Positions 800-55,070 of a stretch of DNA of 64,000 nucleotides are shown piece by piece. Each line of letters opens with the position of its first letter. Position 1 is the stretch's first letter. The DNA is from a virus. Taxonomy: Duplodnaviria > Caudoviricetes. Under the pieces are notes generated by a model. That model was not told the origin of the DNA and made no database searches. It worked only from the letters and a program-made list of their open reading frames with translations. The position numbers were made by a program, and so were the translations under genes. The stretch lies in IMG/VR virus record IMGVR_UViG_3300025120_010521. The stretch is one strand, 5' to 3'.

Positions 800-874
800 T
801 GGCATTCCCTAGGAGAGTCGAACTCCTCTTTCCTGGATGAAAACCAGGTGTCCTAACCGATAGACGAAGGGAAC
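800..874 (-). tRNA. trnE: tRNA-Glu(TTC)
   Basis: Cloverleaf: acceptor GTTCCCT/AGGGAAT, anticodon arm CCTGG-TTTTCAT-CCAGG, T-loop TTCGA, encoded CCA. Confidence 0.95.
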
Positions 875-9517: not shown

Positions 9518-9718
9518 TTATTTAAAATAATCAAGAGGAAATGAATAAATTCCTAGTGTTTGGATATCTGGATATCTTAATTTTACAATAACATATTGTT
9601 CATCAGTTACTGCAACAATACTATCTGCGTGATTAGGAATATAAGTTCTTGGAATTGTTTTATCTTGTGAAAACTTTTCATGTCGATCGTAGTCTTCGTA
9701 TCCAACTAACGTGTACAC
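9518..9718 (-). CDS. hypothetical protein
   Basis: 66-aa ORF coupled to the clpP stop codon. Confidence 0.55.
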   Translation of the reverse strand: MYTLVGYEDYDRHEKFSQDKTIPRTYIPNHADSIVAVTDEQYVIVKLRYPDIQTLGIYSFPLDYFK

Positions 9719-10299
9719 TACCTGCTTTCAACAATTTTATCAATTAGGCCAAACTCTAATGCTTGATCCGGATTCATGTAATTATCACGTTCCATTGCAT
9801 CTTCGACTGTTTTAAGATCTTTACCACAGTGTTTTACATACAGGTTATTTAATCTTTTCTTTGTATCTAAGATATCTTTTGCATGTATTTCAATATCTGT
9901 TGCTTGTCCTTGAAATCCTGCTGATGGCTGATGTATCATTATTTTTGAATTTGGTAATGATATCCTTTTACCAGGTGCTCCTGCCATTAGTAACAATGAC
10001 CCTGCACTTGCAGATAAACCAATACTTACTGTTGATATATCAGGTTTTACATATTGCATAGTATCATACATTGCCAACCCTGCTGTTACCGAACCGCCTG
10101 GCGAATTGATATACATGTAAATGTCTTTATCTTTAGAATCTGATTCTAAAAATAATAATTGGGCACAAACTAAACTTGATGTTGCATCATCAATTGGGCC
10201 AGTTATAAAAATAATTCTTTCTTTAAGTAAACGTGAAAAAATATCGTAACTTCTTTCACCTCTTGACGATTGTTCAACAACCATTGGTACTAGATTCAT
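9718..10299 (-). CDS. clpP: ATP-dependent Clp protease proteolytic subunit
   Basis: [34 protein letters not shown], catalytic S (SASAG), H (IHQP) and D (ERD). Start adjusted to the ATG spaced from AGGAG. Confidence 0.97.
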
Positions 10300-10309
10300 A
10301 TTCATCTCC

Positions 10310-11806
10310 TTAGACATTAAATTCAACTCCTTGTGCCAATGGCAAGTCTGTTGAGTAGTTTACAGTTACCGTACTTCTACGCATGTATTGTTTCCATGCA
10401 TCAGAACCACTTTCTCTTCCACCTCCAGTGTGTTTTTCACCACCAAAGGCACCGCCAATTTCAGCCCCACTAGGACCAATATTAACATTTACAATACCAC
10501 AATCAGATCCATTTGCTCCAATAAACAATTCCGCTTCTTGTAAATCTTTTGTAAAGATACAACTGCTTAAACCTTGTGGTACATTATTGTTAATTGCTAT
10601 TGCTTCTGCTAGTTCATCATATGGTATGATATAAAGCAAAGGTGCAAAAGTTTCTGTTTTTGTAATTTCTTCTGCTTTAGTTAATTCAACTATTGCTGGT
10701 GTTACATATACACCATCACGTTCTAATTTTGTTCCGCCAGTAACAGTTCCAATACCTTGTTGCTCACATTGTGCTATTGTTTCTTTCATATTTTCATATG
10801 CTTGTTCACTAACTAACGGTCCCACTAGTGTGTTGCTGTCTAAAGGATCGCCAACTGTAATTTTTGCATAATATTTTTTAAGAATTTTTACTAGCTGTTC
10901 ATGTATTGATCTATGCACAATAACTCTACGCAATGTTGTGCATCTTTGTCCTGCTGTTCCTACAGCACTAAACAGTATGCCTCTAATTGCTAATTTCATA
11001 TCTGCATTTGGTGTAACTATCATTGCATTGTTACCACCAAGTTCCATTAATACTCTGCCAAATCTTTCAGTAACTTGTTTACCTAGTGCTTGACCCATTT
11101 CTGTTGACCCTGTTAATGAAACAAGATTAATATGTTTGTCTTGTGCTAACCATTCTGCATGTTCGTTTTTACCTATAACAAGTTCTAATATATTTTGTGC
11201 TTGAGCTATACCAGAACGTTCTACTGCTTTTTTAAATATTGCCTCACAAGCAAAAGATACTAAAGGTGTTTTAGGCGATGGTTTCCAAATTGTTGTATTA
11301 CCGCAAACTGTTGCAATAGCAAAGTTCCAACTCCATACTGCTACAGGAAAATTAAATGCTGAAACTACTCCAACAACTCCTAACGGATTCCACATTTCTT
11401 GCATACGGTGACCAGGTCTTTCACTTGGCATTGTTAGTCCGTATAACTGTCTTGATAAACCAACTGCAAAATCACAGATATCAATCATTTCTTGAACTTC
11501 ACCTAAACCTTCTTGAAATATTTTACCATTTTCAATAGTAACTAATCTTCCAAGCTCATTTTTATACTTACGAAGTTCTTCTCCAAATAATCTAATTAAT
11601 TCACCTCTTTGCGGTGCAGGAACTGTTCTCCAATCAATTTGTGCTTGTTTAACATTAAGTACTTTTGCTTCATACTCTTGCCTAGTAGTATGTTTTACTG
11701 TGGCAATTTCAGTAGCATCGATTGGGGATACTACTGATTCACCATTTTGTACTGTATATAAATTTTGATCTACGCCTATAGATTCTAATATCTGTTTTGT
11801 GTTCAT
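10310..11806 (-). CDS. aldehyde dehydrogenase, family 7 (piperideine-6-carboxylate/aminoadipate-semialdehyde dehydrogenase-like)
   Basis: [47 protein letters not shown]. Confidence 0.92.
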
Positions 11807-12118: not shown

Positions 12119-12427
12119 TTAGAAAATGCCAAGAGCTAATTTTGCCTCTTCACTCATCATTTCCTGTGAAAACGGAGGGTCAAATGTTGTTTCAATAAAA
12201 CATGAATCAACACCCTCAACAGTTTCGGCCGCATTTTTGATGTCTGCTACAATTTGGTCTGCCGCTGGACAAAAAGCCGATGTTAGTGTATGTGTAACTG
12301 CTACTTTAGGTAGTTCTGATATATCAATGTTATAAATTAGTCCAAGATCATATATATTAATAGATATTTCAGGATCATAACACTGTCTAAGATTTTCTAT
12401 AATTTTTTCTTTTATTGCTTCTGTCAT
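12119..12427 (-). CDS. sufT: DUF59 / SufT-like Fe-S assembly protein
   Basis: CYDPEISINIYDLGLIY, TLTSAFCP, FDPPFSQEMMSEEAKLALG. Confidence 0.88.
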   Translation of the reverse strand: MTEAIKEKIIENLRQCYDPEISINIYDLGLIYNIDISELPKVAVTHTLTSAFCPAADQIVADIKNAAETVEGVDSCFIETTFDPPFSQEMMSEEAKLALGIF

Positions 12428-12996
12428 ACTGCTTCAACTGTATGTACTTCGGGTATATAATGTTTTAACATATTTTCAATGCCCATCTTAAGTGTTGCTG
12501 TCGAACTTGGACATCCTGAACAAGCACCATACATTTCTAAATACACAGTTCCTTTATCAAAACTATGAAAAATAATATCGCCACCATCCATTGCTACTGC
12601 TGGTCTAACACGTTCATCAAGTAATTGTGTAATTCTTTTTGTAATTTTATCTGTACCTGCATCATTGTTGATTGTTTCACAAGCAGGTTTTGTTTCTTCA
12701 ATAATAAATGGTTTATCATGGTAGTTCTGAATTTCAGAAATTACTAATGATTTAAGATCTTCCCATTCAACTGTATCAAGTTTTCCTATAGTAATAAAAT
12801 CAGATCCAAAAAATACATCTTGAACTCCTTCAATTTTAAAAAGATTATATGCTAATGGTGATTCTTCTACCGGATTATCTTTAGGATCTTTTTTATAAAA
12901 TAACGGAGACTTAATCCCTCTTATTTCTCTACCTGGTAGAAATTTAAGTGCGTTTGGATTAGGTGTTGGCTCTGTTTGTATCATCATTGTCATCAT
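12424..12996 (-). CDS. nfuA: NfuA/NifU-type Fe-S carrier
   Basis: TEPTPNPNALKF Nfu_N domain and VRPAVAMDGGDI...GACSGCPSS (CxxC). Confidence 0.93.
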   Translation of the reverse strand: MMTMMIQTEPTPNPNALKFLPGREIRGIKSPLFYKKDPKDNPVEESPLAYNLFKIEGVQDVFFGSDFITIGKLDTVEWEDLKSLVISEIQNYHDKPFIIEETKPACETINNDAGTDKITKRITQLLDERVRPAVAMDGGDIIFHSFDKGTVYLEMYGACSGCPSSTATLKMGIENMLKHYIPEVHTVEAV

Positions 12997-16145: not shown

Positions 16146-16187
16146 GAAATTGTTTCCTTAATATATAGTTATTTATCGTATTCAAAC

Positions 16188-16241: not shown

Positions 16242-16682
16242 TTACTTAATATCAATAGTTTTTGGCTTTTTGCTTTCTGGAATAATTCTTTCCAGTGACA
16301 CACGAAGCAAACCATCTTTAAGTTCAGCACCTTTTACTTCTACATCATCTGCAATCGTAAATGCTTTTGTAAATTGTCTTTTAGAGATTCCTTTATGGAT
16401 AACTCCGTCAGTAGACTCTTTATCTTCATCAGATTTTACAGATTTAATAGTAAGTGTATTTTCAGCATACTCTACATTGATGTCTTTTTTGCCAAATCCA
16501 GCAAGTGCGACTTCTATATCGTAGGTATTATCACCTGTCCTTACAATATTGTAAGGTGGGTAATTTGTCATAGGTGCTGTGAAAACGTCTCCATCAAACA
16601 TTGATTCAAAATGATTGAAAACTTCATCAAACCCAATAGTTACAGGACGTAACTGATTAAAAATAGATAGATTTCTTGTCAT
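16242..16682 (-). CDS. small heat shock protein (Hsp20/IbpA family)
   Basis: NYPPYNIV, EVALAGF, IHKGISKRQF, AELKDGLL, KPKTIDIK; GGAGG SD. Confidence 0.95.
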   Translation of the reverse strand: MTRNLSIFNQLRPVTIGFDEVFNHFESMFDGDVFTAPMTNYPPYNIVRTGDNTYDIEVALAGFGKKDINVEYAENTLTIKSVKSDEDKESTDGVIHKGISKRQFTKAFTIADDVEVKGAELKDGLLRVSLERIIPESKKPKTIDIK

Positions 16683-16808
16683 AATAACTCCTCCTTTTAA
16701 GCAAGTTGTTTTAATGTAGATCCTATCAAAGCAATCTACATTTATATTTATACAGTTTACTGTATATATATTATATAAGCATGAATTTTAAAAAGTCAAG
16801 AGTCTAAT

Positions 16809-17051
16809 TTATTTTTTTTCTATTTTTTCTGAAAAAAGTTCAATTTTTTGGCCAGGTCCAACTTTACTAGGTAAATCACCATATGTTTCTGCATATTTTT
16901 TTATTACTTCTATATAGAATACAGTAGAATTATGGTGACATTTTTTATTAATTTCTGATAATCCATTATTTGTGCTATCAATGTGAGTTGCTAAAGCCCT
17001 TGCGGCCTCTTTTTGTAGTGTACGTAAATCTAATGTTTCTAAATCTATCAT
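16809..17051 (-). CDS. hypothetical protein
   Basis: 80-aa ORF in operon orientation. Confidence 0.65.
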   Translation of the reverse strand: MIDLETLDLRTLQKEAARALATHIDSTNNGLSEINKKCHHNSTVFYIEVIKKYAETYGDLPSKVGPGQKIELFSEKIEKK

Positions 17052-17052
17052 A

Positions 17053-17328
17053 TTATTTCTTTAACTTATTTAATACACGATCATTTGCTGATATTCTTGT
17101 TTTTATCATATATCCTTTTGCACCATTATATGGATTTTGCATATAAGATTCATTTACCCAATAATATTTAAAAAAAATCATATCTCCGTCATCAAGTTTT
17201 ACTGGATACCAGGCAAAACATTTTCTCCATCTTGAATTCCATTGTGGTAAATTCATTTTTTGCTTACCCCAATTTCCTAGATAGTTGACATCTATAATTT
17301 GTATGTTTCTTGATAACCACTGCAACAT
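17053..17328 (-). CDS. hypothetical protein (Trp-rich)
   Basis: 91-aa ORF with WRKCFAWYPV. Confidence 0.6.
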   Translation of the reverse strand: MLQWLSRNIQIIDVNYLGNWGKQKMNLPQWNSRWRKCFAWYPVKLDDGDMIFFKYYWVNESYMQNPYNGAKGYMIKTRISANDRVLNKLKK

Positions 17329-17353
17329 TTTTTTTCATACCTTTTAATCTTTG

Positions 17354-17430
17354 TGGCGGGAGTGAAGGGACTCGAACCCTCGGCCTTCCGCGTGACAGGC
17401 GGACGCTCTAACCAACTGAGCTACACCCCC
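17354..17430 (-). tRNA. trnD: tRNA-Asp(GTC)
   Basis: Cloverleaf: GGGGGTG/CACTCCC acceptor, TCCGC-CTGTCAC-GCGGA anticodon arm, TTCGA, CCA. Its 5' 10 nt overlap the end of sufD. Confidence 0.96.
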
Positions 17431-17996
17431 ATTAGAGGTTCTCCCATTCTATTCTTGATATCTTGATAAAATGCTTCAATCAAAATCTCAATGGCTTTTG
17501 ATTCAGGTATACCTCTACTTCTAAGATAAAATACCTGCTCTTGATCCAGTGGACCTGTTGTTGCACCATGTGAACATATTGTATCATCATTTTTGATATC
17601 TAGTTCTGGTTTTGAAAATGCAAAAGAATCATCATCTAATAATAAATTTTTATTCAACATATGACTTTCACATCCTGTTACACCTTTTGGAATGGTAATC
17701 TTTCCTTCAAAAGAACTTTCACAGTCCTTATTTACGAATCTAAAATCTTGATCACATTTAGACTTCTTGCCTTTGTGTGTTACTTTTGTAACGACCTTCG
17801 GATCTCTTCCTTCATTATGGAACAAGCCATACATTTCACAAGAAGCGTTCTCTTCTAAATCTATATTAATCTTTACATCAACACCAGCACGATCATGGAA
17901 AAATAATCTAGCGAATGAGTTTGGTTTCAAAGTGTAATTTAAAACTGCGTCCTTTTCTAAGTTTATAGTTTCTGTGTGAGTATTTTTTATTTCCAT
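17421..17996 (-). CDS. sufD: SufD-like Fe-S assembly protein (short, C-terminal part only)
   Basis: SKPELDIKNDDTICSHGATTGPLDQEQVFYLRSRGI; 191 aa. Confidence 0.85.
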   Translation of the reverse strand: MEIKNTHTETINLEKDAVLNYTLKPNSFARLFFHDRAGVDVKINIDLEENASCEMYGLFHNEGRDPKVVTKVTHKGKKSKCDQDFRFVNKDCESSFEGKITIPKGVTGCESHMLNKNLLLDDDSFAFSKPELDIKNDDTICSHGATTGPLDQEQVFYLRSRGIPESKAIEILIEAFYQDIKNRMGEPLMGV

Positions 17997-19444
17997 TATC
18001 CCACAGAACCTTCCATGCTAACTTCTAATAATTTGTTGGCTTCGACAGCAAACTCCATAGGAAGTTTTTGGAATACTTCTTTACAAAATCCTGATACTAG
18101 TAAGTTGGTTGCATCTTCTTCGTTTAAACCTCTTGCTCTCATGTAGAATAATTGATCTTCATCTATCTTAGATGTTGTGGCTTCGTGATTACAAGTACTC
18201 TTTCTTGTTTTACTATCAATGTAAGGAATAGTTATAGCAGAACATTCATTGCCCATCATTAAAGAATCACAGGCAGTAAAGTTTTTGGCTCCTGTGGCAC
18301 GTTTACCAATTTGAACTAATCCTCTGTAAGTGTTAGTGGATTTACCTGCTGAAATACCCTTTGAGATTATTGTGCTTTTGGTATTTTTTCCTATGTGTAT
18401 CATTTTAGTGCCTGTGTCTGCCATTTGATATCCATTTGTTAATGCAACTGAAAAGAATTCTCCAACAGAGTTATCTCCTTTTAGTATACATGAAGGATAC
18501 TTCCATGTCAATCTACTTCCTGTTTCAAACTGTGTCCAAGTTATACGAGAGTTTTCTCCTTTACACAAACCTCTTTTAGTTACAAAATTATAAATACCAC
18601 CTTTGCCTGTTTCAGGATCTCCTGGATACCAATTTTGTATTGTTGAATATTTTATTTCTGCATCTTTCATAGCAATTAATTCTACGTTGGCCGCATGTAA
18701 TTGATTTTCGTCACGCATTGGTGCTGTACAGCCTTCTAAATAACTTACATAACTACCTTCATCAGCAACAATCAGTGTTCTTTCGAACTGTCCTGTGTTT
18801 GAAGCATTTATTCTAAAGTATGTTGATAGTTCCATTGGACATCTTGTGTTCTTAGGAATGTAACAAAATGTACCATCTGAAAATACTGCTGAATTAAGTG
18901 TAGCAAAATAATTATCTGAACGTGGAATAACTGTGCCTAAATATTTTTTAACAAGGTCAGGATATTTTTCTACTGCTTCACCAAATGAACAAAATATAAT
19001 TCCTTTTTCTAATAATTCTTTATGATACGTTGTTGCTACAGATACAGAATCAAATACAGCATCTACTGCCACTCCTGCCAATGCCGCTTGTTCTGATGTA
19101 GGAATACCTAACTTTTCAAATGTAGCAAGTACTTCAGGATCAACTTCATCCATTGACTCTAGTTTTGGTTTTGGTTTAGAATAATAACTTAATCCCTGAT
19201 AATCTATAGGATCAATTTCAAGTGTTGACCAATCTGGTTCTTTCATTTCTGTCCAACGTTTATATGCTTTTAACCTATAGTCCAACAACCATTCCGGCTC
19301 TTTTTTCATTTTTGAAAGTCTTGTAACTATTTCTTCGTTGAGACCTGGTTCAAATGTTTCACTTTCCACATTGGTAACGAATCCAGCACTATATTCTTTA
19401 GATAAGTTATCTTCAATTTTTTTTCTATCTTTTACTTTTGGCAT
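17996..19444 (-). CDS. sufB: Fe-S cluster assembly protein SufB
   Basis: [51 protein letters not shown]. The true start is MPKVK at 19444; the track's 24-aa extension is read through tRNA-Val. Confidence 0.96.
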
Positions 19445-19455
19445 ACTACTATTTA

Positions 19456-19531
19456 TGGTGGGTAATACAGGACTCGAACCTATGACCCTCTCGGTGTAAA
19501 CGAGATGCTCTACCAACTGAGCTAATCACCC
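19456..19531 (-). tRNA. trnV: tRNA-Val(TAC)
   Basis: Cloverleaf: GGGTGAT/ATTACCC acceptor, TCTCG-TTTACAC-CGAGA anticodon arm, TTCGA, CCA. Its 5' 10 nt overlap the end of speD. Confidence 0.96.
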
Positions 19532-19902
19532 TTAATATTGATTTCTGTTAAGCCTCGTTCTCTATTCAAATACTTGTACTCAACTTTTACAGGATCAAAT
19601 TGTTTAATTTCTTCAAATATAACATCTGTTGGTAAACTACCACAAGTATATACGTCAAGTTGTAATAATCCTGGATCTGTTTCGTCCCAACAATGTAATG
19701 CTATATGAGATGTTTCAATAATCACTAAACCAGTTAAGCCTCTATTACCAGGCATGTTTAGATATGTTGTAATTGGTCCTTGACATATTTGCATACCAAT
19801 TTTTGCTACTAAATCTGTTAACCATGTATGAGCCCATTTTTGATTAGTAGGTGGTTTTTTTACTTCAGCTCTAACTATTAGATGTTTGTGTTCAACTGTC
19901 AT
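19522..19902 (-). CDS. speD: S-adenosylmethionine decarboxylase proenzyme (prokaryotic short type)
   Basis: [18 protein letters not shown]...LDVYTCG. Start set at the ATGA overlap with the upstream stop. Confidence 0.85.
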
Positions 19903-21263
19903 TTTAAAACTAATGGACAATATTCTTCGATTGCCATATTCCTATTTTTATCTAAAACTTTATTAAACTTAACAAAATCATCATAGTACTTTTTATGCTT
20001 GTTATCATTTAGGCAACTTGTTAACCAATGAATAACATTATTAAACTGTGTTTCTAATCTATATCTATCTTCTTCACTATGCATTGTGCTTTTTAATAAG
20101 TCTACATTTACTTTTTTTATTTTTTTTATACTTTCATCTAATATACTAACAGGTAATACATTAGAATGCAAGTGTTTAGGCCATTGTAATCTTGATGTGT
20201 GCCAATTACATTTTAACTCATTAACTATCCATGTTCCTGTTTCTGCCAAATATGGAGTATTTAATGCTTGAACTGTTGTTGTAGCTTTTATTTCTACTTT
20301 ACTTCCAAGTTCTTTTCTTACTATTGCTAGATTTTCTTTTAATAACCAACTATCAGCACCATGTCTTATATATTCATTTCTTTTTGGATCACCATCAATA
20401 CTAATTGTAAGTTTAATACTTTTAAATTTTTTCCAAAGTTCAATAATATCCATTTTTTTACTAAAGTTTAACTTGCTAAGATTAGTACTATATTTTAAAA
20501 TAATATTTTCAGTCTTTATGTTTTCTTGTTCGCCTAGTATCTTTAAAATTTTAAATACTAAAGGATCTAATAAAGGTTCACCGCCTGCAAATTCTACTTC
20601 ATCTAATGACGGGGCAAGTTCTTTAAATTCTTCAATAAAGTTTTTCTGTTGTTCAAATAAATTGATTAGCGGACTTTTATGCATGTTGAAACGTTTAATA
20701 TCATTTTCAACCGGGCCTCTATCTCCTTCCGGATAAAACTCTTTTACACTATCCCAATCTGCCATCCAAGGTGTAGAATCTTTTGGCCAACACATTCTAC
20801 ATTTAAAATTACATAAATTTGATGGCTTTAATTCTAATACTGGAATTGTAAAAGGAAATGTATCTGATTTATTATTTGAATAGTCTATCCAATCTTTTAC
20901 ATTTTTAGAGTATCTATCTATTCTTGTAATATTTTGTCCTTGACGTAAACTCATTATACCTTTATTTTCCATTGACCAACAATTTACACATTCAGGTAAA
21001 TTATTTTTGTTGCCACTAATCATATCTTGTCTAATTTTGTTCATACGGTCACTATACCATATATCTTTAAATGTAGTATCTGAAGCATCTGCTATTTTTT
21101 GAGACCTACAGCACAAACGTATTTGTCCGTTTGGTGTTGTACTTAAATGCATAAAAGGTTGTATACAGAACGTATCAGTATTTAAATCATTATCAAGTTT
21201 TTTAGATAATTGATTTATCTTATCAACTGAGTATTTTTGTTGTTCGTCATTAGAGTTAGCCAT
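19899..21263 (-). CDS. radical SAM protein with N-terminal SPASM/twitch-like domain
   Basis: CNFKCRMC and FAGGEP; N-terminal CIQPF...LCC...CVNC. Probable start MANS (track gives 21278). Confidence 0.88.
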   Translation of the reverse strand: MANSNDEQQKYSVDKINQLSKKLDNDLNTDTFCIQPFMHLSTTPNGQIRLCCRSQKIADASDTTFKDIWYSDRMNKIRQDMISGNKNNLPECVNCWSMENKGIMSLRQGQNITRIDRYSKNVKDWIDYSNNKSDTFPFTIPVLELKPSNLCNFKCRMCWPKDSTPWMADWDSVKEFYPEGDRGPVENDIKRFNMHKSPLINLFEQQKNFIEEFKELAPSLDEVEFAGGEPLLDPLVFKILKILGEQENIKTENIILKYSTNLSKLNFSKKMDIIELWKKFKSIKLTISIDGDPKRNEYIRHGADSWLLKENLAIVRKELGSKVEIKATTTVQALNTPYLAETGTWIVNELKCNWHTSRLQWPKHLHSNVLPVSILDESIKKIKKVNVDLLKSTMHSEEDRYRLETQFNNVIHWLTSCLNDNKHKKYYDDFVKFNKVLDKNRNMAIEEYCPLVLK

Positions 21264-21291
21264 ACATTTTACCTTCAAAAAGTAAGCCTAA

Positions 21292-22041
21292 CTACTTTTT
21301 TTTAAAAATTGGAATTGGGTCCATTTTATGTAGATTCAGCTTTCTTATGCTATGATATTTATCTAGTAAATCTATGTCTGGTCCAATTGCAATAGCACCT
21401 TTTTCGTCTAGTTCCATTGCTCTTTCCATTTGTTCATAAGATAAACCGCCTAGCTGATCTTTATCTGTTCTACCATCTTCCCATAACCCATCGGTTGGAG
21501 GTGCATCAATTATTTCTTGTAGGACACCTAAATCTTTTCCTAGTTGCCAAACTTCTGATTTCATTAGGTCTGCTAATGGAGATATATCAACTCCGCCATC
21601 ACCATATTTTGTATAAAAACCTACTCCAAAGTCTTCTACTTTATTACCTGTGCCTACAACAAGTCCTTTTTTAGCACCCGATATATGATGTAGTGTAAGC
21701 ATTCTAAGTCTTGCTTTTGTGTTTGCAAATGCATGTTCACTGCCGTAATCATTAAATGTATCTAACCAAAATCTTTCATAAGTCCTATTTAGATCAATTA
21801 CTTCATGTGTTACATTGTTAAATTTTTCTTCTAACCAAGATCCATGATCCATACTTAAATCATGTTGATCTTCAATTTGGTTTATTGGCATAGAGACTGC
21901 AATGGTTTTCATTCTAGTCATAGCACACAATGTACTGACTACTGACGAATCAATGCCTCCTGATATTCCTACTACTAATGTTTTACGATTATTTTCGTTG
22001 GCGTATCTTTTTATCCATTTAGAAATGTCGTCTTGTATCAT
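21292..22041 (-). CDS. nadE: NH3-dependent NAD+ synthetase
   Basis: GISGGIDSSV, ANTKARLRM, GTGNKVE, FYTKYGDGGVDISPLADL, APPTDGLW. Confidence 0.95.
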   Translation of the reverse strand: MIQDDISKWIKRYANENNRKTLVVGISGGIDSSVVSTLCAMTRMKTIAVSMPINQIEDQHDLSMDHGSWLEEKFNNVTHEVIDLNRTYERFWLDTFNDYGSEHAFANTKARLRMLTLHHISGAKKGLVVGTGNKVEDFGVGFYTKYGDGGVDISPLADLMKSEVWQLGKDLGVLQEIIDAPPTDGLWEDGRTDKDQLGGLSYEQMERAMELDEKGAIAIGPDIDLLDKYHSIRKLNLHKMDPIPIFKKK

Positions 22042-22047
22042 GGAGTA

Positions 22048-22404
22048 TTATCTCCTTTTGACTTTTTTCTTTGGAGTGCCGTATTCAGCCGCCTCGGCTT
22101 CTTTCCTTAATTTAAAAGCTCTTCTTATTGCACGTTTTTTATCTTCACGTTTTACAAAAGATGGCTTCATGTAGTATCTTCTATCACGAAGTTCTTGCAT
22201 GACTCCTTCTTTTAATAACATCTTTTTAAGTTTACGCATAGCTTTTTCAACGTTGTTGTCAACAACTGCAACAGCCATACCTGGTAACTTAGGTGGACGT
22301 GGTCTTCTCTCTTTGAAATCTCTTTTGTTAGAATTAGAATTATATTCTATATCAAAAGATTTTACATCAATTTTTTGTCTAGGTTTTCCTGTTTTCATAT
22401 TCAT
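22048..22404 (-). CDS. rpsU: ribosomal protein bS21 with long basic N-terminal extension
   Basis: VVDNNVEKAMRKLKK...RDRRYYMKPSFVKR bS21 core. Confidence 0.88.
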   Translation of the reverse strand: MNMKTGKPRQKIDVKSFDIEYNSNSNKRDFKERRPRPPKLPGMAVAVVDNNVEKAMRKLKKMLLKEGVMQELRDRRYYMKPSFVKREDKKRAIRRAFKLRKEAEAAEYGTPKKKVKRR

Positions 22405-22413
22405 AATACTCTT

Positions 22414-22441
22414 ATATTAACATCTTTACAATATTTGTCAA
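22414..22441 (-). promoter_or_regulatory. sigma70-type promoter TTGACA-N16-TAATAT
   Basis: Perfect -35 box upstream of rpsU-nadE; weaker -10 box. Confidence 0.5.
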
Positions 22442-22998
22442 CTCTTTTTTGTATCACTATCTTTATCTTTAGTAATAACAGCTATAATTCTGTTTCCAGC
22501 TTGTTTTGGTGGTGAATCATATTTAGTTTGCTCTAATTTTTTAACCATCATATTAATTTGATCAATGAACATTCTGCCGTTTGGTATTTCTCTACCTCGT
22601 AGCTTCATAACTATTTTTACCTTATCTCCATCGTTAATAAACTCTTGAGCTTTTTTAAGTTTAACATTAAGATCATGTACATCAATATTTGGCCTAAATT
22701 GTAATTCACGTAACTCTATTCTATTTTGTCTTTCAAGTTTTTTCTTTTGCTTGTCTTTTTTTTGTTTTTCATAGTTCCATTTTCCAAAATCCATAATACG
22801 ACATACAGGCGGATCAGCTTTTACTGTTGTGCATATAAGATCTAAATTACTTTCTTTTGCTTTTGAAAGTGCTGTTTTATTATCAACTATTCCAATAAAT
22901 GCTCCATCTGGGTCAATAAGTCTAACTTTTGGAAATGTAATTGCTGAATTTAACAATACACTTGGTTGTTGATTTCTGTAACGAAATGGTTTTTTCAC
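22438..22998 (-). CDS. infC: translation initiation factor IF-3
   Basis: VRLIDPDG, LDLI..ADPPVCRIMDFGK, ELQFRPNIDVHD, GDKVKIVMKLRGRE. Confidence 0.94.
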   Translation of the reverse strand: MKKPFRYRNQQPSVLLNSAITFPKVRLIDPDGAFIGIVDNKTALSKAKESNLDLICTTVKADPPVCRIMDFGKWNYEKQKKDKQKKKLERQNRIELRELQFRPNIDVHDLNVKLKKAQEFINDGDKVKIVMKLRGREIPNGRMFIDQINMMVKKLEQTKYDSPPKQAGNRIIAVITKDKDSDTKKS

Positions 22999-24254
22999 TA
23001 TGCTCCGTTTTTCTTATCTACTGTTTTGTAAATTAGCATTGGTGACTTACTTTCTGTTATTACTGTATCATTAATTACAATTTTTTCAACATCTTGTTGT
23101 TTTAGTAATGGCAATTCATATTGTAATTCTAATAGAATTTTTTCAAGAACAGAACGTAATCCTCTAGCACCAATTTTCTTTTCTAATGCTTCACTGGCTA
23201 CAACTTCTATAGCTTCTTTTGTAAATTCTAATTTTACTCCATCTAACTTAAACATTTTTTCAAATTGTTTTAACACTGCGTTTTTTGGCTTGGTTAAAAC
23301 GTGTATAAGGTCTGTATGCGTTAAACTATGACATGCTACTACAACTGGCAGTCGACCTACCATTTCTGGTATAAGACCAAATTTAACAACATCATCCGGT
23401 TGTACTTTTGATAATATTTGATCAAATTCTTCTTGTGACTCAAAGTTAGACATAAATCCCATTGATGTGTTTACATTTAATCTACGTTTAACAATTTCAT
23501 CCAAACCAACAAATGCTCCACCACATATAAACAAAATATTTGTAGTATCAACTTCAATTAAATCTTGTTGTGGATGTTTTCTTCCTCCTTGTGGCGGAAC
23601 TCTAACAGTTGTACCTTCAAGTAATTTTAATAATGCTTGTTGTACACCTTCACCTGATACATCTCTTGTAATTGATGTGTTTTCTGACTTACGTGACTTT
23701 TTGTCTATTTCGTCAATATATACAATACCTCGTTGGGCACGGTCAACATCAAAATCACAACTTTGTAACAGTCTTAGAATAATATTTTCAACATCATCAC
23801 CAACATAACCACTTTCAGTTAATGTTGTTGCATCTGCTTGGGCAAATGGTACATCTAAATAATCTGCAACTTTCTGAGCCAACAATGTTTTACCGCAACC
23901 ACTTGGCCCAGCTAATAATACATTTGACTTTTCTAATTCTACTCCGTCAACAACAGGATTATTTAATCTTTTATAATGATTATAAACTGCAACACTTAAA
24001 ACTTTTTTTGCTTGTTCTTGTCCAATTACATGTTCATCTAAATGTAATTTTAATTCATCAGGTATAATAACTTTTAAGGCTTTAGTTTCTTTGCCGTCTG
24101 CTTTTTGAATATCGTTTTCTTCTAATATTGAATAGCATAAGTCTACACATTCATTACATATATAAACTTTAGGTCCTGCAATTAGTTTTGTAACTTTAGA
24201 TCTTTCTTTACCACAGAACGAACAACTGTAGGAATCATCTTTTTTCTTAACCAT
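22998..24254 (-). CDS. clpX: ATP-dependent Clp protease ATP-binding subunit
   Basis: CSFCGK zinc domain, GPSGCGKT Walker [30 protein letters not shown]. Confidence 0.97.
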
Positions 24255-28489: not shown

Positions 28490-28912
28490 CTACTCTTTTA
28501 TAGATATACTCATAGAACGACATGATCCTTCTACCTGAGCCATTGCTTGTTCTATAGTAAAAGCATTCATATCTTCCATTTTTTCTTCGGCTATTTTTTT
28601 AATTTGTGCTTTAGTAATATACTTAATTGTATTACGCCCTGGTGTTTTACCACCTTTTTTAAGACCAACTGCTTTTAATATAAAATATGTAACAGGTGGT
28701 TTATTGAGAGTAAATTTAAAACTCTTGTCTTTATAAACTGTAATTAGACAAGGTATTGGACCTTCTAAGGCTTTTGTTTTATCATTAAAGCTCTTACAAA
28801 ATTCCATTATATTAACACCACGTTGACCTAGTGCAGGTCCAACTGGTGGGGCTGGTTTAGCCTGTCCAGCCTCTATTATTAATTTCAGAGTACCAGTTAC
28901 TTCTTTTGCCAT
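28490..28912 (-). CDS. rplK: ribosomal protein uL11
   Basis: [53 protein letters not shown]; GGAGG SD. Confidence 0.95.
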
Positions 28913-28931: not shown

Positions 28932-29183
28932 TTATGCTGATTCAGTATTTGATTCAGCAGGTGTTTCGTCAGCAGTTGCTTCAGTTAATTTTAACTGAGT
29001 TGCAACAGGCTTACCGTTATGTTCAGCAACAATATACTCCATTGCTTGGCCTTGATCTACTTTTGTTATTCCTGCATCTTTAAATGCTGAAACGTGAACA
29101 AATACATCATTGCCACCTTCATCCGGTACTATGAATCCAAAACCTTTTGAAGCATTGTACCATTTTAATTTACCTGTACTCAT
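28932..29183 (-). CDS. cspA: cold-shock domain protein
   Basis: GKLKWYNASKGFGFI (RNP1) and DVFVHVSA (RNP2). Confidence 0.95.
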   Translation of the reverse strand: MSTGKLKWYNASKGFGFIVPDEGGNDVFVHVSAFKDAGITKVDQGQAMEYIVAEHNGKPVATQLKLTEATADETPAESNTESA

Positions 29184-29413
29184 CTGTACTCCTTATTATA
29201 GTATACTCTGTAAGCACCATTTGTAGGCAGTAACTCACAGTGTTTTAAGCTATCATTGGCGTCAACCCATAGCTCAAATTCTTCTTTAATCTTACCTTGT
29301 CCTGTAATAACAGTAACATACTTAAGACCTTGATGCTTGTTTTCATGAACAAACTTTGTAAATTCTCTCCAAGCATCTTGTACATAATAACCATGTAAAT
29401 CTAAACTATACAT
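29180..29413 (-). CDS. stand-alone Smr domain protein
   Basis: LDLHG...A, VITGQG, NGAYRV. Confidence 0.85.
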   Translation of the reverse strand: MYSLDLHGYYVQDAWREFTKFVHENKHQGLKYVTVITGQGKIKEEFELWVDANDSLKHCELLPTNGAYRVYYNKEYR

Positions 29414-33391: not shown

Positions 33392-33436
33392 GCAAATATT
33401 TATAAGTTAAGTGTTGCTATTATATACTTTTATTTC

Positions 33437-33526
33437 TGGCGGAGAGAGTGAGATTCGAACTCACGAAAGAGTTGCCCCTTTGCCGGTTTTCAAGACCGGT
33501 GCTTTCAACCGCTCAGCCATCTCTCC
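33437..33526 (-). tRNA. trnS: tRNA-Ser(TGA)
   Basis: GGAGAGA/TCTCTCC acceptor, CCGGT-CTTGAAA-ACCGG anticodon arm, long variable arm, TTCGAAT, CCA. Confidence 0.96.
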
Positions 33527-54120: not shown

Positions 54121-54492
54121 ATGGATTATAACGAATTGTCAGATAAGTTTCCCTTTTTATCGTGTATAAAGCACGGTTTAAACGAATATGTTGGTATTAT
54201 ACAAAATCAAGACGATTTTGTAACTAGTATCTACATCTATGACGACATTCCTTCAGAACAACTTAAAGCAGATTTTTTAAGATTAGGTGATGTATGGTGG
54301 TGGGAATCAAACAGAGTAATTCCTATTAATATATTTTTAGCAGGTGAGTTTTCTTTATATCAAAATTGGCTTAAAACTTTTACTACTAAAGATATTAAAA
54401 TGATATTTGGTCCAACTACTAGCTTAAATAATATTGTAAGAAAAAGAATTAAAAGACGTCAAATACAATTAATCAAAAAAACTAACGGTTAA
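54121..54492 (+). CDS. conserved hypothetical phage protein
   Basis: FPFLSC...EYVGII...WWWESNR.IPINIFL; divergently transcribed single gene (track starts at TTG 54115). Confidence 0.75.
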   Translation: MDYNELSDKFPFLSCIKHGLNEYVGIIQNQDDFVTSIYIYDDIPSEQLKADFLRLGDVWWWESNRVIPINIFLAGEFSLYQNWLKTFTTKDIKMIFGPTTSLNNIVRKRIKRRQIQLIKKTNG

Positions 54493-55070
54493 ACAATAAG
54501 ATTAGATAGCAAATTTAATTGTACACAAATTGCCAATGCGTATCCAATTGCATGGCTTTTCTTAAAATAGTATGAATTATCTTTTGGTTTTTTCCAAACA
54601 TTTTCATTTATATCATCCCAGTTTTGTTTAAGTAAATGTCTTTTTGCTGGACGTATAATTGCTAGTACTGCCGCTAATTGCTCTACTGACTTTGGTTTTA
54701 ATGTACTAAGAATATCAAAATGATTATGTATATGAAATAGTTGTTCTACTATTTCTTTATGCTCTAATAAACTCCAGTCTGGTTCTTGATCTATTAGTTT
54801 TTGTAAATGATTCTCATCTTTTACTTTTTCATATACTCCTACATTTAATATATCTAATTTAAAATATCCTCTATCTTCAGCTTCTTTATAGTCAACGTTT
54901 GCTGTTTTAGTAAATGGATGTAATGGTATATCTGTAAAATAAACTCCAGTGTTATGTTTTTTAATTTCACCGTTGTTTATAATACTAGCAGGAATATGTT
55001 TCAGTTTTTCTAATAAAACATCTCTGTCTTTAACATCAATATCAATATCTGTTTTTACTATATTTGTCAT
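54489..55070 (-). CDS. miniature DNA polymerase III alpha (DnaE)-like protein
   Basis: DIDID, KHNTGVY, YFKLDILN, LAIIRPA, FKKSHAIGY. Confidence 0.7.
   Translation of the reverse strand: MTNIVKTDIDIDVKDRDVLLEKLKHIPASIINNGEIKKHNTGVYFTDIPLHPFTKTANVDYKEAEDRGYFKLDILNVGVYEKVKDENHLQKLIDQEPDWSLLEHKEIVEQLFHIHNHFDILSTLKPKSVEQLAAVLAIIRPAKRHLLKQNWDDINENVWKKPKDNSYYFKKSHAIGYALAICVQLNLLSNLIV

Follow-up and report, generated by a model that had tools for sequence, protein, structure and literature searches.

In mitochondria, where coding regions abut tRNA genes, RNase P and RNase Z cut a polycistronic precursor at the ends of its tRNAs, and polyadenylation turns a partial stop codon (U or UA) into a full one, an arrangement that was reportedly described as tRNA punctuation by Ojala, Montoya and Attardi in 1981. 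In the compact genomes of prokaryotes and phages, short same-strand overlaps between coding regions, of the ATGA and TAATG types, likewise let a gene share its stop or start codon with its neighbour, and these overlaps have been explained by deletion bias combined with tolerance. Coding regions that end inside a tRNA gene can be found in phage annotations as well. In the dense, shuffled tRNA region of coliphage T5, four coding regions end 6-24 nt inside the next tRNA gene on the same strand, namely, T5.057 in tRNA-Met, hegD in tRNA-Gln2, hegC in tRNA-Ser2 and T5.069 in tRNA-Asn; in T4 (NC_000866.4), no such overlap exists at the 3' end of segB, which stops 5 nt short of tRNA-Arg. A tRNA-Asp similarity search of GenBank records brought up such overlaps in two cyanophages. 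In S-RSM4 (FM207411), the gene annotated as cepT ends with ...CGT ATG GGG TTG TAG, the TAG occupying positions 8-10 of tRNA-Asp, and S-WAM2 (KU686211) contains the same cpeT/tRNA-Asp junction along with a gene annotated as an HNH endonuclease, whose stop codon falls on positions 8-10 of tRNA-Asn. The S-RSM4 and S-WAM2 junctions are visible only as annotation, no paper discussing them having been found in the open-access literature; nor did that literature yield any account of stop codons embedded in phage tRNAs or of non-stop mRNAs made by RNase P in this manner. For T4-like cyanophages, Sullivan et al. (2010, PMC3037559) reported an association of tRNA genes with non-syntenic regions and accessory genes.

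Here we describe a junction of this kind in a 64,000-nucleotide stretch of phage DNA (hereinafter, the window), where a sufD-like gene runs into a tRNA gene. The tRNA-Asp(GTC), with its CCA encoded, occupies positions 17354-17430 of the minus strand (ARAGORN; Rfam RF00005, 72.9 bits), that is, there is a bona fide tRNA gene downstream of sufD and on the same strand. The sufD-like open reading frame (17421-17996, minus strand) encodes a short protein of 191 aa with a SUFBD_core match (PF01458, E=5.9e-36). Read on the minus strand, this frame ends with ...GAA CCT CTA ATG GGG GTG TAG CTCAGTTGG..., so that no stop codon precedes the tRNA and the first one in frame lies within it. The final codons ATG GGG GTG and the TAG consist of a 2-nt spacer followed by tRNA nucleotides 1-10: the G of the last ATG codon is nucleotide 1 of tRNA-Asp (G1), GGG GTG are nucleotides 2-7, and the stop codon (17421-17423) coincides with the T-A-G at positions 8-10 (17423-17421). 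The assertion of the first-pass annotation that the sufD stop lies inside tRNA-Asp at these nucleotides, with the first 10 nt of the tRNA (17421-17430, minus strand) belonging to both genes, thus holds in every detail. From what is generally known of RNase P, its cleavage site is expected between 17431 and 17430.

The locus resembles mitochondrial punctuation in that the coding region abuts the tRNA without a spacer and in that excision of the tRNA would define mRNA ends. It differs in that the uncut RNA of the window has a complete stop codon inside the tRNA, and polyadenylation would not complete one after the cut, given that CUA AU with added A residues reads AUA AAA. Unlike in the ATGA and TAATG overlaps, the stop is here provided by conserved nucleotides of an RNA gene; the 1-nt overlap between the stop codon of sufB and the ATG of sufD, just upstream, does belong to that familiar type. 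In T5, the shared stops are located at tRNA positions 4-6, 12-14 and 21-24 rather than at 8-10, and several of the genes involved are homing endonucleases. With S-RSM4 and S-WAM2, by contrast, the geometry is identical: there is no own stop, a bridging codon reaches to tRNA nucleotide 1 and the acceptor stem contributes two codons, although the upstream genes are different, the hosts are cyanobacteria and a search of the two complete genomes gave no ClpP match.

Upstream of sufD lies sufB (17996-19444, minus strand), which encodes 482 aa from the ATG at 19444 and matches SUFBD_core (4.1e-80) and SufBD_N; directly 3' of tRNA-Asp lies a 91-aa frame (17053-17328, minus strand) that is present in one close relative (L004) and is not found in another (L056). 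Full-length SufD proteins comprise about 400 aa or more and include an N-terminal domain. The window protein, with its 191 aa, does not have this architecture: it contains the SufBD core domain (PF01458) but only the C-terminal part thereof, residues 45-176 aligning with profile positions 98-232. Short forms of SufD, 187-205 aa in length, comprise a conserved family that extends to contigs that are not phage-like, on which the gene adjoins an ABC ATPase gene in the position of sufC and, on one of them (L135), also a SufE gene. The short SufD proteins from L135 (1403-2002) and L136 (1010-1582), of 190-199 aa and sharing 55-58% identity with that of the phage, could point to the lineage of the donor or host; the L136 gene has its own stop codon. 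With their ...QIG or ...RLTGQ endings, these longer forms were considered as further cases of the gene running into a tRNA and were rejected, both genes lying next to an ABC ATPase gene with no tRNA.

A second junction of the same kind is located upstream of sufB. The window contains four tRNA genes, all on the minus strand and all above the Rfam threshold for tRNA (ARAGORN, Rfam). In tRNA-Val(TAC) (19456-19531; Rfam 68.9 bits), which starts with GGGTGATTAG at its 5' end, positions 8-10 (19524-19522) are T-A-G, and the gene for S-adenosylmethionine decarboxylase, speD (19522-19920, minus strand; PF02675), ends within this tRNA with AAG GGT GAT TAG, its stop being in the same register as that of sufD in tRNA-Asp. 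The sequence and the PF02675 match bear out the earlier claim that the two junctions share one geometry. In one of the relatives (L009), the speD homologue has its own TGA three residues earlier, so that the protein ends with ...TEIQL, against ...TEINIKGD in the window. The other two tRNAs serve as internal controls and, as had been claimed, show no overlap: positions 8-10 are TCG in tRNA-Glu(TTC) (800-874, minus strand), which no open reading frame enters, and TGG in tRNA-Ser(TGA) (33437-33526, minus strand), whose upstream gene has its own TAA and ends 12 nt ahead of the tRNA. At the other end of tRNA-Glu (800-805), the first ATG of the downstream frame (MPKEIM...) overlaps the last nucleotides of the tRNA and its CCA (..GGGAATGCCA..); a second ATG follows 15 nt further, and either may be the true start of this frame.

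We then compared the ends of sufD in nine related IMG/VR loci (L001-L009) and in L137. The junction is the same in L004 (98% amino acid identity to the window SufD) and in L137 (87%), and in the latter the synonymous sites upstream of it differ; the sequence of tRNA-Asp is identical in L004, L137 and L056. A public gene call of 107 aa in L137 (999-1322) starts within tRNA-Asp and is probably spurious, caused by ignoring the tRNA. In L001 and L002 (89%), sufD is followed by tRNA-Arg(GCG) instead; there, the TAG at positions 8-10 is out of frame, and the gene runs on to a TAG in the D-loop, at positions 21-23, which gives the C-terminus ...PLITARSSVG. Where there is no tRNA, sufD has a stop codon of its own: TAA in L003 (85%) and TAG in L005 (68%), each yielding a protein of 188 aa, and likewise an own stop in L006-L009 (47-60%), which have no tRNA at this site. 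The first-pass annotation had proposed, as one check, to see whether the in-frame overlap is conserved among related phages: it is kept in L004 and L137, despite the diverged synonymous sites upstream, and is absent in L003, L005 and L056.

The same contrast is seen in the protein databases. The ...MGV ending is limited to the near clade of the window protein (protein clusters P0001-P0004), whereas homologs with more than about 65% identity that do not have this ending are mostly 187-190 aa long, those in clusters P0005-P0014 having 187-188 aa. Orthologs located away from a tRNA (L003, L005 and P0005-P0014 for sufD, and L009 for speD) thus have their own stop at the equivalent position, and the bridging codon of the window gene stands exactly where the relatives have their stop. 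Because the relatives stop at 187-188 aa and only the near clade has MGV, the last three residues of the window protein are an add-on dictated by the tRNA.

The gene neighborhoods of the same relatives show that sufB-sufD behaves as a mobile accessory cassette, found in at least three contexts within one phage group. The window and L004 have it between tRNA-Val and tRNA-Asp; L001 and L002 have it upstream of tRNA-Arg; and in L003 and L005 (1553-3567), it is flanked by homologs of the window frames 54489-55070 and 54121-54492, adjoining a convergent gene. L056, whose 92-kb contig encodes proteins with 91-94% identity to those of the window, has the order nadE, speD overlapping tRNA-Val, 2 nt, tRNA-Asp, a homolog of the frame at 16809, and hsp20 (the site being at 690-870), without sufB, sufD, the radical SAM gene or the 91-aa frame. 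This difference may reflect either insertion of sufBD between tRNA-Val and tRNA-Asp or its deletion from L056; among the sampled loci, tRNA-Val and tRNA-Asp are adjacent in only two unique contexts. In L004, an additional tRNA-Lys(TTT) (1456-1531) is present between tRNA-Val and sufB and, because this locus is 98% identical to the window, the tRNA content evidently varies even between near-identical phages.

In order to place the junction in a wider context, we ran ARAGORN on 133 loci, mostly fetched by the 5' pattern of tRNA-Asp, and obtained 271 unique tRNA contexts, in 52 of which the tRNA lies close to the end of a same-strand open reading frame with 100 codons or more. In tRNA-Asp and in most of the other sampled tRNAs, U8-A9-G10 reads TAG. 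Among the 42 close junctions with such a tRNA, the upstream frame uses the TAG at positions 8-10 as its stop in 19 cases and a stop at tRNA position 21 in one, whereas it has its own stop in frame with the TAG in 6 and its own stop in another frame in 16; these loci are biased toward tRNA-Asp and are partly related to one another, so the proportions are rough. By contrast, in all 10 close junctions with tRNAs that do not have TAG at positions 8-10, the upstream gene has its own stop, and an overlap was never seen in this set (0/10). The 19 position-8 cases belong to six unrelated gene families, namely, sufD, speD, cpeT, an HNH-like frame (a label taken from the GenBank annotation, there being no Pfam match), DUF7212 and a 2OG-Fe(II) oxygenase, and involve three tRNA species, those for Asp, Val and Asn, the tRNA-Arg case being the one at position 21. 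The geometry, then, is independent of both the function of the gene and the identity of the tRNA. The cpeT/tRNA-Asp junction is kept at a median protein identity of 66%. The pattern in these sequences is that the own stop is lost when, and almost only when, the tRNA provides an immediate in-frame stop. For a real gene, such an overlap goes beyond chance, but it is frequent.

The window (31.8% G+C, with 69 of the 73 long open reading frames on the minus strand) looks like part of a large AT-rich marine phage that combines replication genes of the T4 type with numerous accessory genes: it encodes RecA/UvsX-like and gp32-like proteins and several radical SAM proteins and, by Pfam matches, bS21, the C-terminal domain of IF3, a full-length uL11, Hsp20, Nfu/NifU and a SufT-like FeS_assembly_P protein. 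The genes for translation, chaperone and Fe-S functions, including those for ClpP (9718-10317) and ClpX (22998-24254), are located at 22048-22794, 28490-28912, 16242-16682 and 12119-12996 in addition to these two. The statement of the first-pass annotation that the phage encodes its own ClpX, ClpP and Smr nuclease stands for the two Clp proteins, both of which are confirmed, while for Smr there is a candidate 80-aa frame near 29180-29413 that is consistent with this assignment through its LDLHG motif alone. CheckV estimated the 92-kb contig of L056 (G001) as 24% complete and the 66-kb contig of L004 (G002) as 8% complete, and, among more distant relatives, sufD-bearing contigs are as long as 243-328 kb; this may be a very large phage.

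Around sufBD, the genes are tightly packed and mostly on one strand. In the region 16700-22100, no terminator-like sites were found, and a scan for sigma-70 promoters gave 29 matches against 27.4 expected, that is, the chance level. The motif ATAAATA, which resembles the T4 late promoter, is depleted over the window as a whole (24 sites against 52 expected by shuffling), but 21 of the 24 sites are on the coding strand and many lie just 5' of gene starts, among them those at 16745-16751, 16170-16176 and 33397-33403. The site at 19450-19456 (minus strand) extends from the terminal A of the tRNA-Val CCA to 5 nt before the ATG of sufB. This distribution fits a role of the motif as a T4-like late promoter and, if the site at 19450-19456 functions as one, sufB, sufD and tRNA-Asp would be on one transcript. 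Seven metatranscriptome runs cover small shares of the region, as assembled contigs, which cannot show RNA ends, and none of these contigs spans the sufD/tRNA-Asp junction with at least 31 nt on each side.

Taken together, these observations are, in our view, probably best explained by gene packing and gene shuffling, with the sufD/tRNA-Asp overlap as a by-product rather than a dedicated switch. The sufBD cassette is wedged in among tRNA genes with hardly any spacer. Having no stop of its own, sufD is completed by a bridging codon formed from two spacer bases and G1, by Gly and Val codons from tRNA nucleotides 2-7, and by the stop at U8-A9-G10. With the TAG in frame, loss of the own stop would be tolerated, as the protein grows by three residues only, and, since further deletion would harm either the gene or the tRNA, the arrangement would be a stable end state. 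The first-pass annotation had already offered a simpler reading, in which the gene, after losing its stop, falls back on the first one in frame, and this reading fits every comparison made here, including the relatives without the tRNA, in which the protein stops at 187-188 aa, and those with tRNA-Arg, in which another TAG of that tRNA, again in frame, serves as the stop.

RNase P cuts at position 1 of the tRNA, and tmRNA rescues ribosomes from messages without a stop codon. If tRNA-Asp is co-transcribed with sufBD, as appears plausible, maturation of the tRNA would leave a sufD message that ends with ...CUA AU and has no stop, a deduction that we consider sound. Ribosomes on the cut message would stall after Leu188, exactly where the protein naturally ends, and would have to be rescued; tmRNA would tag a product of exactly the natural 188 residues. 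The uncut RNA encodes the 191-aa SufD with a normal stop, the protein of the relatives being 188 aa long. A ribosome that reaches the TAG would have to unfold the acceptor and D stems, hence translation of the end of the gene and cleavage of the tRNA would be mutually exclusive at any one moment. We read the stop-less message as a tolerated side-cost or, at most, as a slight brake on the output of sufD, and see no sign that it is put to use.

A far more specific function was proposed in the first-pass annotation, namely, a tRNA-punctuation switch in which each transcript would give either full SufD or mature tRNA together with an SsrA-tagged product to be degraded by the phage ClpXP, thereby tuning Fe-S assembly. 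Indeed, the geometry makes the two outcomes exclusive for any given RNA molecule, co-transcription is plausible given the one-strand packing, the lack of a terminator-like site and the late-promoter-like motif 5' of sufB, the phage encodes both ClpX and ClpP, and L004 and L137 retain the junction. Nevertheless, the proposal seems quite improbable to us. The overlap is absent in L003 (85% identity) and L005, where the same sufD has its own stop, and L056 has no sufBD at all between the same two tRNAs, which is the kind of outcome that the first-pass annotation itself had named in advance as contradicting it. Furthermore, the same geometry is found with cpeT, HNH, DUF7212, 2OG oxygenase and speD, and because it recurs with such unrelated genes, it is not tied to Fe-S assembly; it is also present in the complete genomes of S-RSM4 and S-WAM2, which have no ClpP match, and overlaps are confined to tRNAs that provide a stop in frame. 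The link between an Fe-S switch and the phage ClpXP thus finds no support. A looser variant of a regulatory role, in which the embedded tRNA would stabilize the 3' end of the sufBD message or serve as a handle for its processing, or ribosomes would delay tRNA maturation, with selection acting on RNA timing, is compatible with the exact bracketing of sufBD by tRNAs, with the overlap of the promoter-like motif and the CCA of tRNA-Val, and with the longevity of the junctions. However, a shared stop is not needed for a flush tRNA to serve this purpose, an own stop is retained at about half of the close junctions, and in the relatives sufBD works in a tRNA-free context, so we regard this possibility, too, as unlikely.

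The long persistence of the junctions, at 87% identity for sufD and about 66% for cpeT, could be explained by selection for the overlap as well as by a ratchet. Position-8 stops outnumber deeper in-frame stops by about six families to one, an excess that hints at selection on the frame but is explained equally well by selection against long C-terminal tails. That the sharing of the stop at U8-A9-G10 has been selected as a general device in tRNA-rich phages is a notion to which we attach little credence; were it true, maturation by RNase P would make the message stop-less, the amount of protein made per transcript would be capped and coupled to tRNA processing, and tmRNA rescue, in this phage together with its own ClpXP, would clear the products. 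As for the prosaic possibility that the junction is an artefact, that is, an error of assembly or reading frame, a sufD gene in decay or a tRNA pseudogene, the short SufD, with 191 aa and only the C-terminal part of the core, might at first sight suggest it. This explanation is barely credible given that the same junction is present in the independent assemblies L004 and L137 and in clusters P0001-P0004, two of which include 164 and 41 member sequences, that short SufD proteins of 187-205 aa comprise a conserved family, and that the tRNA, with its score of 72.9 bits, does not differ between relatives.

The sufD/tRNA-Asp overlap, then, adds a further case to a packing pattern that annotated phage genomes (T5, S-RSM4 and S-WAM2) already show, and it provides no evidence of a switch in Fe-S assembly, so that a tempting over-interpretation is removed. 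In the marine phages sampled here, about half of the close junctions with TAG at positions 8-10 of the tRNA use that TAG as the stop codon, which implies that annotation rules forbidding overlap between coding regions and tRNAs would mis-call such genes. More generally, the finding raises the question of whether phages routinely pay the cost of non-stop messages and tmRNA rescue for genes located upstream of co-transcribed tRNAs.
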